From a virus (taxonomy: Duplodnaviria > Heunggongvirae > Uroviricota > Caudoviricetes), in the IMG/VR virus record IMGVR_UViG_2690315994_000022: a DNA stretch of 6,119 bases. The stretch is one strand, 5' to 3'. Below are positions 1 through 5,843 of the stretch, in pieces; the stretch's first letter is position 1, and each line of letters begins with the position of its first letter. A program made the position numbers and the translations under genes. The notes beneath the pieces were generated by a model that saw only the letters and a program-made list of their open reading frames with translations, ran no database searches and had not been told where the DNA came from.

Positions 1-432
1 TATATTTTCAGTGCCGATAAAAATGCGTTTTTCCCTGTGGAGCTTAAAATCGCTTATCAGGAATCCGGCGAATGGCCCGGTGATGGAATCGAAATTGACG
101 ACACTGTTGCCGCCGAATTTATGAAGGAAGCACCAGAAGGAAAATACAGAGGTGTCATCGACGGAATGCCTACATGGATTGATATTCCACCGCCAACTCA
201 TGAGGAACAAATTGCCGCAGCCGAACTGGAAAAGCAGCAATTGATTAATCAGGTCAACGAATACATAAACAGTAAGCAATGGCCTGGTAAAGCGGCGATT
301 GGTCGCCTGAAAGGTGAGGAACTGGCGCAATATAATTTGTGGCTGGATTATCTGGACGCACTGGAGCTGGTCGATACTTCCGGTGCGCCAGATATTGAAT
401 GGCCTACGCCTCCGGCAGTTCAGGCCAGATGA
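1..432 (+). CDS. tail fibre assembly protein (Tfa/U-type), 5'-truncated by the window edge; inverted partner copy (tfa')
   Basis: Frame 1 is open from base 1 to TGA at 430..432 (the supplied ORF starts at GTG 37 but the frame is open upstream). C-terminus LWLDYLDALELVDTSGAPDIEWPTPP matches the C-terminus of the minus-strand Tfa (AVLDYIDAVTATDTSTAPDVIWPELP), the conserved tail of phage tail-fibre assembly chaperones. Convergent with and overlapping the other tfa by 29 bp. Confidence 0.8.
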   Translation, partial: YIFSADKNAFFPVELKIAYQESGEWPGDGIEIDDTVAAEFMKEAPEGKYRGVIDGMPTWIDIPPPTHEEQIAAAELEKQQLINQVNEYINSKQWPGKAAIGRLKGEELAQYNLWLDYLDALELVDTSGAPDIEWPTPPAVQAR

Positions 433-997
433 CGTCCGGCGCTGTGCTGGTATCTGTTGCCGTCACCGCGTCAATATAATCCAGCACAGCGTTAAGTCGG
501 GTGTTTTCTGGCTGCGTCAGCTTCCGCCCGGCCTGTAATTTCAGTTGAATCAGACTGATGGAAGCCATTGCAGCATCAATCAGCGACTGGCGCTGTGCTT
601 CTGCCGCTTCTACTGCGGCGCTATGCGGTGCCTCGGTATCCGTCACCCATTTCTCACCATCCCATTTATCGTATGGCGTTAACGGTGAAAGCGTGACATA
701 ACCGTCTTTGATGGCACCGATATAATCCACTGTAACAGCTGCGCCATTTTCAGTTGAGTAAACGGTCTCATTGCGATGGTCTTCTTCATGGCTCCATCCC
801 TTACCCGTAAATACAGCCACTTTTCCCGGAATGTTTTCGCTCGGGTCAATACCAGTGGAACAGGCGGGCATACTTACGCCAGTATTAATATATTCATCAG
901 ACCAGCCGGTATATTCATACGTTACTGCATTATAATAAAAACAACGCATATCGCCCGGCACTGTAGCCAGCCCATTTTCATCAAAAACAGGTTTCAT
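404..997 (-). CDS. tail fibre assembly protein (Tfa)
   Basis: 197-aa ORF with ATG at 997..995 sharing one base with the tail-fibre stop (TAATG overlap). Same conserved C-terminal motif as tfa'. Sits directly downstream of the tail-fibre gene, as in Mu S-U, P2 H-G and e14 stf-tfa. Confidence 0.85.
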   Translation of the reverse strand: MKPVFDENGLATVPGDMRCFYYNAVTYEYTGWSDEYINTGVSMPACSTGIDPSENIPGKVAVFTGKGWSHEEDHRNETVYSTENGAAVTVDYIGAIKDGYVTLSPLTPYDKWDGEKWVTDTEAPHSAAVEAAEAQRQSLIDAAMASISLIQLKLQAGRKLTQPENTRLNAVLDYIDAVTATDTSTAPDVIWPELPEA

Positions 998-2100
998 TAT
1001 TTAGCCCTCACCAGAAAGTTAAATGCAATATTTCGTGGACGGGTTTCTGTACCTACATTTCCACTAATTTCACCATAACGTTTAACACTACGAGAGCTAA
1101 GAGCTCGTAGTGAGGAAGGCACCTTAAGACCGGGTTCGTCCGTTTTAACTATTCCCCCGTCACCATATGTAGCCAGTATTCCTGGGTTTACTCCTTCCCG
1201 TGCACTTCCTGCGGCAAGCCCGTCCCCCGTCCACAATTCCATATTGTGTGCATGATCCATAATTGTGTGTGATTGCCCTGAAAGTAGGGTACGTCCGACA
1301 TCAATCCCGCGCCCATCATCCCAGATACGAATGAAATCACCGCGTGCGTCAGGTAATGCCAGCGCCGGAAACACTTTCGCCAGCACAGGGTAATCAGTGG
1401 CAGAGAATTTCGCGCCGTTGAACTTCAAAAACACCATACCGGACCAGCTATCGATTACGGTATCTGGCATTGCAGCGGACGGCCAGAAGAACGGAACGCC
1501 AATAGCTGGAGCTCCTTCTCCCAAACCAAGGTTTTCGAGAGCCGTTTTCACCGTGCCATCCGATTTGATATCACCAAACGGATTCTTGCGGCTCAGGTAT
1601 TCAACAGCAAACCCCGATCCCAGCAATTCAACAAANNNNNNNNNNNNNNNNNNNNNNNNNNNNNNNNNNNNNNNNNNNNNNNNNNNNNNNNNNNNNNNNN
1701 NNNNNNNNNNNNNNNNNNNNNNNNNNNNNNNNNNNNNNNNNNNNNNNNNNNNNNNNAAACCAAGGTTTTCGAGAGCCGTTTTCACCGTGCCATCCGATTT
1801 GATATCACCAAACGGATTCTTGCGGCTCAGGTATTCAACAGCAAACCCCGATCCCAGCAATTCAACAAAACCGGGCAGATCACCATTATCAAGCACATCC
1901 CGTTGCGTTTTATCACTTACAAACTGGGCCAGAGCTGCAGCAATAAAGCTGGCCTGCCGAATAACCTTATTGACTTGCGCACTGGAGGCTTTCCCTGCTG
2001 TAAATCCGGATAAAAGCGCGGGCAACGCTTCCCATTCCTCCTGCGATATAACATTGGCATTTCGATCCGTTGCAAACGCTTTAAAGTCATTTTTCGTCAT
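997..2100 (-). CDS. tail fibre protein: constant N-terminal part plus exchangeable tail-collar-type C-terminal part; length inflated by a scaffold gap and a 234-bp duplication
   Basis: Start preferred at ATG 2100..2098 (MTKNDF...), forming an ATGA overlap with the upstream stop and preceded by GGGGAG about 10 nt away; the supplied ORF start at 2118 has its AGGAG too close. The C-terminal part (...[41 protein letters not shown]...) resembles the phage tail-collar motif. A crossover site lies in frame at 1516..1541. The ORF contains 121 N and a duplicated 78-codon block; the real product is probably about 289 aa. Confidence 0.75.
1516..1541. other. 26-bp gix/hix/cix/pix-type recombination crossover site (site 1) inside the tail-fibre ORF
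   Basis: TTCTCCCAAACC-AA-GGTTTTCGAGAG: two imperfect inverted 12-bp half-sites around a 2-bp core, with the AAACC-NN-GGTTT centre typical of Hin/Gin/Cin/Pin sites. Lies at the junction between the N-terminal and collar-type parts of the tail fibre, and a Pin invertase is encoded in the window. Confidence 0.65.
1523..1635. repeat. 113-bp exact direct repeat, copy A (left of the N gap)
   Basis: Compared base by base with 1757..1869: identical. Starts at the AAACC of crossover site 1 and ends at the first N. Confidence 0.95.
1636..1756. other. run of 121 N: scaffold/assembly gap, not biological sequence
   Basis: Uninterrupted n characters; flanked by identical 113-bp sequence on both sides. 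Confidence 0.98.
1757..1869. repeat. 113-bp exact direct repeat, copy B (right of the N gap)
   Basis: Identical to 1523..1635. The post-gap sequence begins inside the crossover site, at its AAACC. Confidence 0.95.
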
Positions 2101-2780
2101 CAGAGTAATACTCCCCATGCTCCTACATCAAAACCACTGATGAATTCGTTATCCATATCAAAACCAAAAAATTTTGAGCCTTCCGATGGGGTTTCCACCG
2201 AAGGTGTTTCAATGCCACCCGCCCATACCCCGGCGGCTTTTACTGTGAGATACCCCTGTTTAATTGCCGCAATTAACTCACGCGATACATCTGAAATATC
2301 AGTATCAGGAAAGACCCAGACCGATATCGTCATGTCCTGGTTATCGACTATCTGCATTCGCAGCCCGGATCCTGCTGTTGCCGCGTCAAGAATTGCCAGA
2401 AGCGAATCATTCCGTCCGTCCCAGTTATTAATCGCAATCTTCGCTTTAAGAATGACACGATAAGTTTCATCGCTGAGATACATGTATCCTGAATCAGGAT
2501 CGTATGGTCCCTGCCATACCCCCTGATCATATCCAAGCCCGTCGGTATCCCAGCTGAAATAGACACCTGAGATAGGCTGGCTGACAACACGGCTACGTCC
2601 GATCCACAATCCAAGAATGTCAAGTTGCACACCAACCGCAGAGTCAATATCAAATGCAGTAATCAGCCCTCTGGTGGCAGCCGCAACATCAATAAGTGGC
2701 CGGGTCATCAGATCAACATGCGCAAGAAATTTAGGTTTGGTGGCGTGGTAGTTCGTGATTAGTTCGGTGTATTTGCTCAT
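2100..2780 (-). CDS. phage tail/baseplate protein, Mu gp48 / YmfQ-like
   Basis: 226-aa ORF between the baseplate-J-like gene and the tail-fibre gene, the position occupied by Mu gp48, e14 YmfQ and P2 gpI. ATGA overlaps at both ends (2780..2777 and 2102..2098). Family assignment is by position and general resemblance, not a search. Confidence 0.6.
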   Translation of the reverse strand: MSKYTELITNYHATKPKFLAHVDLMTRPLIDVAAATRGLITAFDIDSAVGVQLDILGLWIGRSRVVSQPISGVYFSWDTDGLGYDQGVWQGPYDPDSGYMYLSDETYRVILKAKIAINNWDGRNDSLLAILDAATAGSGLRMQIVDNQDMTISVWVFPDTDISDVSRELIAAIKQGYLTVKAAGVWAGGIETPSVETPSEGSKFFGFDMDNEFISGFDVGAWGVLL

Positions 2781-3976
2781 GACTCCACCGTTATAACGAT
2801 ATTTTCCGGGGTACAGGACACAGATTCGTTGTATCTGATATCAATGTTTGATGACGACAAAGCCCCCGGGGATTTCCCAATCGTCAGTTCCTGAATATCG
2901 TAATAGCGTGCATTCCCGCCACTCACCACGCCAAGATTCGCCGGTGAGTAAATGCGACTTAAAAGGACCGAATCACCAATCATCAGACTATTGATATAGT
3001 CGGAAATAGCCTGCTGGATCTGCTGCCCTATCTGTGAGGTATAACCCGTAAAAACTTGTAATTTGATCCGGGCATAAACAGGCACATCACTGGAACGCGA
3101 GAATTTGATTACATGGGGATTGCCGTATTTATCCGGAACCGTAACGGATGTTGTACCGTGAGTGGCTGTCCCCTGGCCTTTATTTCCTCTGATAGCCTGA
3201 GCAATATCCGTCACATCACCGCCATCCACAATTACAGCAACAGAGTGTGGCGGTAACCCGTTACCGTCCTCCGAACCAGTATCGTTTTCATAGAGTTTGT
3301 GGCGGGTTACACCGGTAACATTAGAAACAGCACCATCCAGTGCTTCAAATGGGGTTATTGATGGCAACGCAACACTTTGCGACTGGCGGATACGTAACTC
3401 CGCATCAGTTTCTGCTGGAGTGCCTACAGTAGCTGCAGCAGGATTGGTTACCGAAACCCAGCCACGGGTTGGCGTATTAATTTCAGTGATAGTTCCAGCC
3501 AGCGCCGCCACTGCACCACTGACGGAACATGTTGCGGTCACCATCACTGTACCATCCACGCCGACCACCACTGAAGCAGGCAAACGCCATATCACATTAT
3601 TACTGTCTTTCACGCTGCCATTAATGATGGTTGTTCCGGCAGTTCCTGTAAGAAGCAAATCAACCGTAGAATTCGTCGCGCCTTTACGTGAAATACCATT
3701 TATTTTCACGTTACTGGTCAGTGCAGCCCCATAGCCGGTTGCCGGTGAAAAACAGTTGTAGACAGTTATCGCCATATTATTGGCATCATGAATCGCCAGC
3801 GCCATCAGAGCCACCATCTGGCCGTCTTTGCTGTCCGGTTCGAGGTAGGCATCACTGCCATAAATCTGCTGAAAATAGCTAATCAGGGTGCTGAGTATCG
3901 TCTGATAATCAGGCGCACTGATCCCCTCCGCGGTTACCTTTGCAGATAAACCGAGAGAATCAAGGTTCAGAGCCAT
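2777..3976 (-). CDS. baseplate J-like protein (Mu gp47 / P2 gpJ family)
   Basis: 399-aa ORF; size, composition and position immediately upstream of the gp48-like and tail-fibre genes fit the baseplate J family. GGAGG lies just upstream of ATG 3976. The stop overlaps the next gene's start (ATGA). Confidence 0.8.
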   Translation of the reverse strand: MALNLDSLGLSAKVTAEGISAPDYQTILSTLISYFQQIYGSDAYLEPDSKDGQMVALMALAIHDANNMAITVYNCFSPATGYGAALTSNVKINGISRKGATNSTVDLLLTGTAGTTIINGSVKDSNNVIWRLPASVVVGVDGTVMVTATCSVSGAVAALAGTITEINTPTRGWVSVTNPAAATVGTPAETDAELRIRQSQSVALPSITPFEALDGAVSNVTGVTRHKLYENDTGSEDGNGLPPHSVAVIVDGGDVTDIAQAIRGNKGQGTATHGTTSVTVPDKYGNPHVIKFSRSSDVPVYARIKLQVFTGYTSQIGQQIQQAISDYINSLMIGDSVLLSRIYSPANLGVVSGGNARYYDIQELTIGKSPGALSSSNIDIRYNESVSCTPENIVITVES

Positions 3977-4141
3977 TACGCCTCCGATGTAACAGTCGTT
4001 ATTCCATAAAGAGTGTCGATTTCAGCGGAAAACATGACACGTCGGGTCGTGGTATCCACCGTCGTATTGAAAGAGAGGATTGATTTAACGCCCNAAACCA
4101 ACGTTTATGAAAATGCAGAAATAACGAGCAAATGGCATCAT
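3976..4141 (-). pseudogene. short ORF or 3' gene remnant upstream of J that reads through crossover site 2; frame depends on the ambiguous base at 4094
   Basis: With the n at 4094 omitted, the minus strand reads MMPFARYFCIFINVGLGVKSILSFNTTVDTTTRRVMFSAEIDTLYGITTVTSEA and stops at TAA 3978..3976, sharing one base with the J start (TAATG). With n kept as a real base the frame stops at 4087..4085. No convincing RBS at its 5' end. Confidence 0.3.
4088..4113. other. second gix/pix-type crossover site (site 2), 55 bp upstream of pin; contains an ambiguous base
   Basis: ACGCCCnAAACC-AA-CGTTTATGAAAA has the same AAACC-AA-(C/G)GTTT centre as site 1. If the n is dropped, the left arm AACGCCCAAACC matches site 1's TTCTCCCAAACC at 9 of 12 positions. 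Its position just upstream of the invertase gene is the canonical one for the invertase-proximal site in Gin/Cin/Pin systems. Confidence 0.55.
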
Positions 4142-4154
4142 TCCTGCTTTTGTC

Positions 4155-4160
4155 AGGGAG
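4155..4160 (+). promoter_or_regulatory. Shine-Dalgarno sequence for pin
   Basis: AGGGAG, 7 nt upstream of ATG 4168. Confidence 0.5.
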
Positions 4161-4167
4161 ATCTACC

Positions 4168-4722
4168 ATGCTTATTGGCTATGTACGTGTGTCAACAAAT
4201 GACCAGAACACAGATCTACAACGTAATGCGCTGAACTGTGCAGGATGCGAGCTGATTTTTGAAGACAAGATAAGCGGTACAAAGTCCGAAAGGCCGGGAC
4301 TGAAAAAACTGCTCAGGACATTATCGGCAGGTGATACGCTGGTGGTCTGGAAACTGGACCGACTGGGGCGCAGTATGCGGCATCTTGTCGTGCTGGTGGA
4401 GGAGTTGCGCGAACGAGGCATCAACTTTCGTAGTCTGACGGATTCAATTGATACCAGTACCCCAATGGGGCGCTTTTTCTTTCATGTGATGGGTGCCCTG
4501 GCTGAAATGGAACGTGAACTGATTGTTGAACGAACAAAAGCAGGACTGGAAGCTGCTCGCGCACAGGGACGAATTGGGGGACGTCGTCCCAAACTTACAC
4601 CAGAACAATGGGCGCAGGCCGGGCGATTAATTGCATCAGGCGTTCCTCGCCAGAAGGTGGCGATCATCTATGATGTTGGCGTATCGACTTTGTATAAGAA
4701 GTTTCCGGTCGGAGATAAATGA
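4168..4722 (+). CDS. pin: serine DNA invertase of the Pin/Gin/Hin/Cin (Din) family
   Basis: 184-aa product starting MLIGYVRVSTNDQNTDLQRNAL, with the catalytic-serine motif YVRVSTNDQ, the conserved WKLDRLGRS and GALAEMERELI blocks, and a C-terminal helix-turn-helix (VAIIYDVGVSTLYKK). Close to Gin/PinE as remembered. Start chosen at ATG 4168 rather than the supplied ORF's 4132 because of the RBS and family N-terminus. Confidence 0.95.
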   Translation: MLIGYVRVSTNDQNTDLQRNALNCAGCELIFEDKISGTKSERPGLKKLLRTLSAGDTLVVWKLDRLGRSMRHLVVLVEELRERGINFRSLTDSIDTSTPMGRFFFHVMGALAEMERELIVERTKAGLEAARAQGRIGGRRPKLTPEQWAQAGRLIASGVPRQKVAIIYDVGVSTLYKKFPVGDK

Positions 4723-5186: not shown

Positions 5187-5843
5187 ATGAAACAGCCTGC
5201 GCCCGTTTATCAGAGAATTGCGGGTCATCAATGGCGACATATCTGGCTTTCTGGCGATATACACGGTTGTCTTGAGCAGTTGCGCCGCAAATTATGGCAT
5301 TGTCGTTTTGATCCGTGGCGAGATTTACTTATCTCAGTGGGAGACGTTATCGATCGTGGGCCGCAAAGTTTACGTTGTCTGCAGTTACTGGAACAACATT
5401 GGGTTCGTGCGGTAAGAGGCAATCATGAACAGATGGCGATGGATGCGCTGGCATCCCAGCAGATGTCTTTGTGGTTGATGAATGGCGGCGACTGGTTTAT
5501 TGCGCTGGCAGATAATCAACAGAAACAAGCGAAAACGGCGCTGGAAAAATGTCAGCATTTGCCCTTTATTCTTGAAGTACACAGCCGCACCGGCAAACAT
5601 GTTATTGCTCATGCCGATTATCCAGATGATGTTTATGAATGGCAAAAGGACGTTGATTTGCATCAGGTCTTGTGGAGCCGCTCGCGATTAAGTGAACGCC
5701 AAAAAGGGCAGGGAATTACAGGTGCTGATCATTTCTGGTTTGGTCATACACCGTTGCGCCATCGCGTGGATATTGGCAACCTGCATTATATTGATACCGG
5801 CGCTGTCTTTGGGGGCGAACTGACTTTCGTGCAATTGCAATAA
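5187..5843 (+). CDS. pphA: serine/threonine protein phosphatase 1 (PPP-family metallophosphatase)
   Basis: 218-aa product MKQPAPVYQRIAGHQWRHIWLSGDIHGC... with the metallophosphatase motifs GDIHG, GDVIDRG and GNHE; recognised as E. coli PphA/PrpA. Start at ATG 5187 (the supplied ORF begins at TTG 5184). Confidence 0.9.
   Translation: MKQPAPVYQRIAGHQWRHIWLSGDIHGCLEQLRRKLWHCRFDPWRDLLISVGDVIDRGPQSLRCLQLLEQHWVRAVRGNHEQMAMDALASQQMSLWLMNGGDWFIALADNQQKQAKTALEKCQHLPFILEVHSRTGKHVIAHADYPDDVYEWQKDVDLHQVLWSRSRLSERQKGQGITGADHFWFGHTPLRHRVDIGNLHYIDTGAVFGGELTFVQLQ

Follow-up and report, generated by a model that had tools for sequence, protein, structure and literature searches.

The window, the whole stretch of 6,119 nt analysed here, corresponds to positions 2-6120 of CYBJ01000001.1, a scaffold of 331 kb in the draft assembly GCA_001284825.1, and lies at the very end of the scaffold. 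It carries a tail-fibre gene with two opposed chaperone genes, a block of baseplate genes, a DNA invertase gene and the chromosomal gene pphA, and the locus is a known Pin/Gin/Cin-type invertible tail-fibre switch next to pphA. Two gap marks, a run of 121 N (1636-1756) and a single N at 4094 that was absent from the original prediction, split the window into three contigs, namely contig A (1-1635), contig B (1757-4093) and contig C (4095-6119), the last of which runs on into ~325 kb of chromosome.

The invertase gene pin (4168-4722, plus strand), annotated pinE, is intact and encodes a serine DNA invertase of 184 aa, composed of an N-terminal resolvase domain (Resolvase PF00239, 1.5e-51) and a C-terminal HTH domain (HTH_7 PF02796, 3.5e-14), with a catalytic Ser region that reads MLIGYVRVSTNDQ. 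The identical 184-aa Pin protein is encoded at the same locus in many genomes. To the right of pin follow the chromosomal pphA (5187-5843, plus strand), encoding Ser/Thr phosphatase 1 and marking the edge of the prophage, and then yebW. The first 483 nt from AAACC into pin (4095-4577) are 100% identical to the prophage at the yfhH locus of DEC5B, while the pphA-locus copy of DEC5E departs from the pin region of the window at offset 67; after 483 nt the pattern reverses, indicating a mosaic pin, the 184-aa product of which is nevertheless common at the pphA locus.

The baseplate genes are all located on the minus strand and comprise a wedge gene (DUF2612/Phage_Wedge1, 2100-2780), the baseplate J gene (2777-3976) and the 3' fragment of a gpW/gp25-like sheath-initiator gene (3976-4093), within which contig B ends. 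The canonical order of the module, taken from nine long contigs in which the identical Pin is encoded beside this baseplate type, is sheath initiator, J, wedge, fibre, an invertible segment of ~1.9 kb and pin, with the genes ahead of the segment all reading toward pin and with pphA after pin in eight of the nine.

Contig B (1757-4093) is 98.9% identical to the phages vB_EcoM-606R2 and 611R5. It carries alleles of the DEC5B type as far as 3065 and of the DEC5E type from 3083, and base 2398 is private to it. That this switch reflects two prophage copies collapsed into a chimera was considered and rejected, as the SNPs on the two sides of the switch are 18 nt apart and would be phased within one k-mer or read; the switch is a natural mosaic or uninformative. 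DEC5E itself possesses two prophages of the same type, one at pphA and the other at yfhH/tadA, and in the latter (L004) pinE is annotated as frameshifted and the DUF2612 gene contains an internal stop. In an index of 153 billion genes, the alleles of baseplate J (399 aa) and of the chaperone Tfa (197 aa) were found in this record only.

The tail-fibre gene reads on the minus strand and is built from a 113-codon constant head, a crossover site and then an exchangeable C-terminus. The constant N-terminal part occupies 1757-2100, that is, 344 nt from AAACC to the ATG of MTKNDF..., and the variable C-terminal part, referred to as cassette A, occupies 997-1527 and ends at the inner half-site ...TTCTCCC-AAACC. 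Matches to contig A stop at 1532-1540 in most of thousands of genomes, which identifies the site as the cassette boundary. Two opposed chaperone genes accompany the cassettes: tfa (404-997, minus strand; PF02413 Caudo_TAP, E = 4.7e-27) belongs to the cassette now joined to the fibre gene, and tfa' (1-432, plus strand; also Caudo_TAP) is the alternative chaperone gene, the first 9 nt of which are missing, while the second fibre C-terminus is off the scaffold.

The start of the scaffold (record position 2) lies 9 nt into tfa', at the boundary of the partner fibre cassette and its chaperone gene. In the relatives, ...ATGCAGAA precedes the first bases of the record, ATATATT, the window itself opening with TATATT. 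The scaffold lacks the partner cassette of ~360 nt and, at the pin-proximal site, the inner half.

The pair of cassettes with its chaperones was found behind three unrelated tail modules, with 97.7-99.5% identity to window 1-1522: the DUF2612/Baseplate_J prophage, P2-like modules (HH107, SF-173, GmF052 and FAM21845) and a Mu-like module (AMSCJX04, at 97.7%). Each of the three module types has its own invertase and its own outer half-sites, and the comparison of these sequences points to cassette exchange between phage types.

Crossover site 1 (1516-1541, plus strand) reads TTCTCCCAAACC AA GGTTTTCGAGAG, with its core at 1528-1529, and across 10 related loci its outer half adjoins different inner halves. 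The pin-proximal site (4095-4113, plus strand) reads AAACC AA CGTTTATGAAAA and is genuine only from AAACC, its inner half being absent. Both sites have AA on the plus strand of the window, which is a direct orientation, with one of them cut at a contig end; this results from the way in which the contigs were put together, and complete relatives have the two sites in inverted orientation around the segment of ~1.9 kb.

The inner half-site of the window cassette reads ...CCTTCTCC-C-AAACC, in which the C is base 1522. For the partner cassette, six complete genomes among the best cassette matches to window 1-1522 were checked, and five of the six (DEC5B, HH107, SF-173, GmF052 and FAM21845, at 99.3-99.5% identity; the sixth at 97.7%) have ...CGCTTCTCC-T-AAACC. 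Apart from this T-type partner, a single sampled inner half-site carried anything other than C, namely the A in L005.

Both orientations of such segments are seen in relatives. At the pphA locus, L011 and L012 (~6124-7928) hold the same invertible segment in opposite orientations, with the inner halves ...AACCTTCTCCC and ...CAATTCCCCC exchanged between the fibre side and the pin side. Likewise, the same cassette pair occurs in one state in DEC5B and HH107 and in the other in SF-173, FAM21845 and AMSCJX04. For the present strain, the coexistence of both orientations is what the contig ends would suggest.

The closest described system is the Pin invertase with the invertible P segment of the E. 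coli K-12 element e14 (Plasterk and van de Putte 1985, as cited in PMC4272514). As in e14, a serine invertase annotated pinE is paired with 12-nt half-sites around a 2-nt core, and the site links a constant fibre head to either of two C-terminal cassettes that oppose each other and have a chaperone each. The crossover site sequences themselves presumably resemble those of e14 as well. In contrast to the lambdoid e14, the host prophage here carries Baseplate_J, DUF2612 and sheath-initiator genes and resides beside pphA, and the window holds one complete site, with the pin-proximal one cut at AAACC by a contig end. The Gin/G segment of Mu and the Cin/C segment of P1, also members of the Din family, share the mechanism and the switching of tail-fibre specificity and differ in their tail modules and outer half-sites. 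In the Din family, the 5' part of the invertase gene contains an enhancer bound by Fis.

The most conspicuous feature of the fibre gene as deposited is an exact duplication. Copy 1 (1523-1635) constitutes the last 113 nt of contig A and copy 2 (1757-1869) the first 113 nt of contig B, and the two are identical at 113/113 positions on either side of the 121 N, in agreement with the original prediction. Copy 1 stops at the N run and copy 2 starts at it, so the full extent of the identity is unreadable. All other repeats in the window are imperfect and at most 23 nt long, the 113-nt block being the sole long repeat, and a chance origin of an exact repeat of this length is impossible. It was likewise correctly predicted that the sequence after the gap opens at the AAACC of site 1 (TTCTCCCAAACC-AA-GGTTTTCGAGAG), five bases to the left of the core AA. 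The copies are spaced by 113 + 121 = 234 nt, equal to 78 codons, and hence the minus-strand ORF at 997-2118 stays open across the Ns.

Complete genomes place the two contigs in a continuous arrangement. In DEC5E, window position 1635 maps to 3047839 and window position 1757 to 3047727, corresponding to an overlap of contigs A and B of exactly 113 nt, and the same exact overlap was found in 09A19CPO009. Of 5,426 complete E. coli genomes, 155 gave a single ungapped alignment, at 100% coverage, to a 600-nt junction query from which the N block and one copy had been deleted. In all 10 related loci, AAACC and the start codon are 344 nt apart; in the window as written the distance is 578 nt counted from copy 1 and 344 nt counted from copy 2. 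When the fibre ORF is collapsed in the same way, it encodes 289 aa from MTKNDF and aligns to two annotated 289-aa DEC5E proteins with no gaps (283/289 and 286/289 identities), and a Pfam search of the collapsed 289-aa protein returned no domain. The true fibre gene is therefore the interval from 2100 to 997 minus 234 nt, encoding 289 aa, so that the earlier proposals of a negative gap, of a gene lacking both the N block and one copy, and of a 289-aa product are all borne out.

These data also bear on a genuine duplication, which would be either a 78-codon in-frame tandem repeat or two 113-nt copies around 121 nt of unassembled unique sequence, and which predicts a second AAACCAAGG between cassette A (left of 1523) and the sequence past 1870. 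The reading frame kept by the 234-nt spacing and the positive distance estimate of the scaffolder (+121) speak for it, although a frame is kept by chance in one case out of three. The identity, however, ends exactly at the contig ends, the boundary of the repeat would have to coincide by chance with the very base that distinguishes the inner half-sites, and the related loci and the 155 complete genomes hold the single-copy form. A 48-nt junction representing the perfect tandem model had no match in the 5,426 complete E. coli genomes. A real duplication is accordingly barely credible.

The 113-nt duplication is thus an assembly artefact and no biological feature. Since the finished genomes are single-copy and colinear, the 344-nt distance is constant and the tandem junction is absent, it can be stated with high confidence that the duplication represents an unmerged contig overlap that was written as a gap.

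The next question is why the contigs broke at this place. Contigs B (1757) and C (4095), the two that flank the invertible segment, both open exactly at AAACC, the first base run common to both inner half-sites, which supports the earlier view that the break is located at a crossover site with differing left flanks. From these contig ends, the sequenced DNA would have held at least two different sequences directly to the left of AAACC. In the preferred explanation, the source of this heterogeneity would be both orientations of the Pin-invertible segment. The inner halves differ, cassette A contributing ...CTCC-C-AAACC and the usual partner ...CTCC-T-AAACC, and if both isomers were present, each of the outer flanks, the constant part of the fibre gene as well as the pin side, would be unambiguous only from AAACC on. 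Four junctions would be possible, with an inner C or T joined to an outer GGTTTTCGAG or CGTTTATGAA, and an isomer mix is the simplest source of all four types.

The length of the overlap is one that we take to fit an assembly graph of k = 113 (SPAdes convention) or k = 114 (k-1 convention); a literature search for papers citing the accession, made to learn the assembler, found none. By our own reasoning, in a graph of k = 113 the path carrying base 1522 would stop at 1522 + 113 = 1635, and contig A does end at 1635. The N run of 121 equals 113 + 8, and 8 is the spacing of bases 1522 and 1530, which distinguish the four possible junctions; this length may be a software signature or a coincidence.

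Coexisting orientations are documented in clonal cultures of E. coli, where read pairs revealed a ratio of ~1:1 at the e14 segment and both orientations also at Mu and P2-like segments (Goldberg et al. 2014, PMC4272514). The present case resembles these phase-variable inversions in that contigs end at inverted-repeat sites, but it differs in the type of evidence, which consists here of contig-end positions instead of read pairs, and the pattern can also be produced by a second copy of the prophage. The isomer reading is favored because pin is intact, L011 and L012 show the opposite orientations, and clonal E. coli cultures are usually mixed at loci of this kind. Judged on the contig ends, this reading has about an even chance of being right.

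Several observations count against isomers. Contig A passes the core unbroken, which a 1:1 mix would not allow in a plain de Bruijn graph, and the isomer reading would therefore need a rare minor isomer or a path-based assembler. Inversion leaves the end of contig B at 4093 and the stop of contig A 9 nt into tfa' unexplained. The partner cassette is off the scaffold, and its T is presumed from the relatives. Furthermore, the written gap of +121 and the true one of -113 are 234 nt apart. The whole chain, running from the overlap artefact through heterogeneity of the left flank to coexisting isomers, is consequently held with confidence evenly divided between acceptance and doubt.

The same gap artefact could have arisen from a fork introduced by a second prophage of the same type, which would have the constant part of the fibre gene, the baseplate genes and the pin-proximal sequence in common with the first, and a different cassette adjoining them; there would then be no mix of isomers, and the assembly would not inform on invertase activity. 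DEC5E, which is among the closest relatives, contains a pair of such prophages at the pphA and yfhH/tadA loci, modules of this kind are present in more than one copy in many genomes, and the 483 nt that are 100% identical to the DEC5B yfhH-locus prophage make a second identical copy feasible. The outer ends of the contigs agree with such a copy: contig A stops at the Hv'/tfa' cassette boundary, a repeat-type break, and lacks a fork at the core, as expected for a single-copy cassette A, and contig B stops right before 4094, where two lineages have C and a third has T. As only ~4% of positions vary among the 10 loci, the end of contig B resembles a break at a difference between copies.

On the other side, a second prophage would need a non-C inner half beside its fibre gene, or the same cassette pair in the opposite orientation, and non-C inner halves other than the T-type partner are rare in the sample. 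Contig B runs unbroken over 2,337 nt, yet the two DEC5E prophages differ at ~28 positions there; its alleles switch between SNPs 18 nt apart, which does not correspond to a collapsed consensus at k near 113; and contig C is unbroken from AAACC through pin into the chromosome. Fork formation by a second prophage is thus possible but doubtful.

A further possibility concerns the software. Gap fillers leave duplicated edges when the gap estimate is too large, and the overlap may have come from gap filling or from extension of contig A into contig B, with the leftward extension of contigs B and C halted where a base first became ambiguous. Post-processing accounts better than raw graph output for the single N at 4094 and for the odd gap length of 121. 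Extension, however, still requires an ambiguous base to the left of AAACC on both flank contigs, that is, two sequence populations, and would therefore change the software story and leave the biology the same; on balance it appears unlikely.

Returning to the mix of isomers, the original prediction went on to conclude that the invertase is active. Mixed isomers, and with them an active invertase, fit the contig ends and the intact pin, and activity is plausible on this ground; a second related prophage of the kind found in DEC5E could give the same forks, so that the forks do not demonstrate it.

The second gap mark, the single N at 4094 that joins contigs B and C, poses a separate problem. 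The homology of contig B to every relative ends at 4093. In the relatives, the sheath-initiator gene goes on past this point as ...AACGCCC followed by CGCGTTTCGAGG, whereas in the window N-AAACCAACGTTTATG and then pin follow, and the junction as written (4088-4113), ...AACGCCC(N)AAACCAACG, brings the sheath-initiator fragment directly up to AAACC at the pin-proximal site. The block of contigs A and B is thereby inverted relative to pin and pphA when set beside the canonical layout. Position 4094 itself corresponds to a C/T difference between prophage lineages: DEC5B and the pphA-locus prophage of DEC5E have C, and the yfhH-locus prophage of DEC5E has T (L001 11337-11338, L004 8523-8524), which suggests that contig B broke off where two copies differ.

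The arrangement was searched for in several collections. Contigs B and C lie on the same strand within 2.7 kb in none of the 5,426 complete E. coli genomes, and the 4094 junction, either exact or with 0-14 nt of slack, had no match in the JGI metagenome contigs and the GTDB species genomes. None of ten loci with an identical Pin has the arrangement of the window, nine of them being canonical with this baseplate type and the tenth a Mu-like prophage. The junction lies 5-6 nt to the left of the crossover core, an offset that precludes a Pin product. The join at 4094 is probably a mis-scaffold, a reading adopted because both contig ends at this position sit where forks are expected.

Two other origins of the junction were considered and rejected. 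Recombination by Pin with a pseudo-site in the sheath-initiator gene, GATTTAACGCCC-CG-CGTTTCGAGGAT, would involve a left half that agrees with the consensus at 3 of 12 positions and a core of CG, not AA; a crossover at the core of this pseudo-site would yield ...CGCCC, the core and CGTTTATG and would lack the AAACC seen in the window. Placing a mosaic boundary at 4093, with different prophage types on its two sides, is at odds with DEC5E and DEC5B, which stay ~97% identical for a further ~900 nt, with a single C/T there.

A real join is highly improbable; it would mean that in this strain a 4.2-kb block, running from the cassettes and the constant part of the fibre gene through wedge and baseplate J to the 3' end of the sheath-initiator gene, has been inverted relative to pin. 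One breakpoint would then be located 5-6 nt from the crossover core and the other within the sheath-initiator gene, and the join would represent an aberrant rearrangement of a non-canonical type at a Pin site, with the tail module of the prophage disabled as a result.

As deposited, the record implies a fibre of 367 aa with 40 unknown residues and a baseplate block placed head-to-head with pin, both of which are almost certainly wrong. The main value of the analysis lies in quality control, since draft-based catalogues of fibre variants, invertible loci and prophage synteny would be misled here. Taken alone, contig ends located at exactly the first shared base of the half-sites do not tell live inversion apart from prophage duplication, but they can serve to mark candidate invertible loci in draft genomes.
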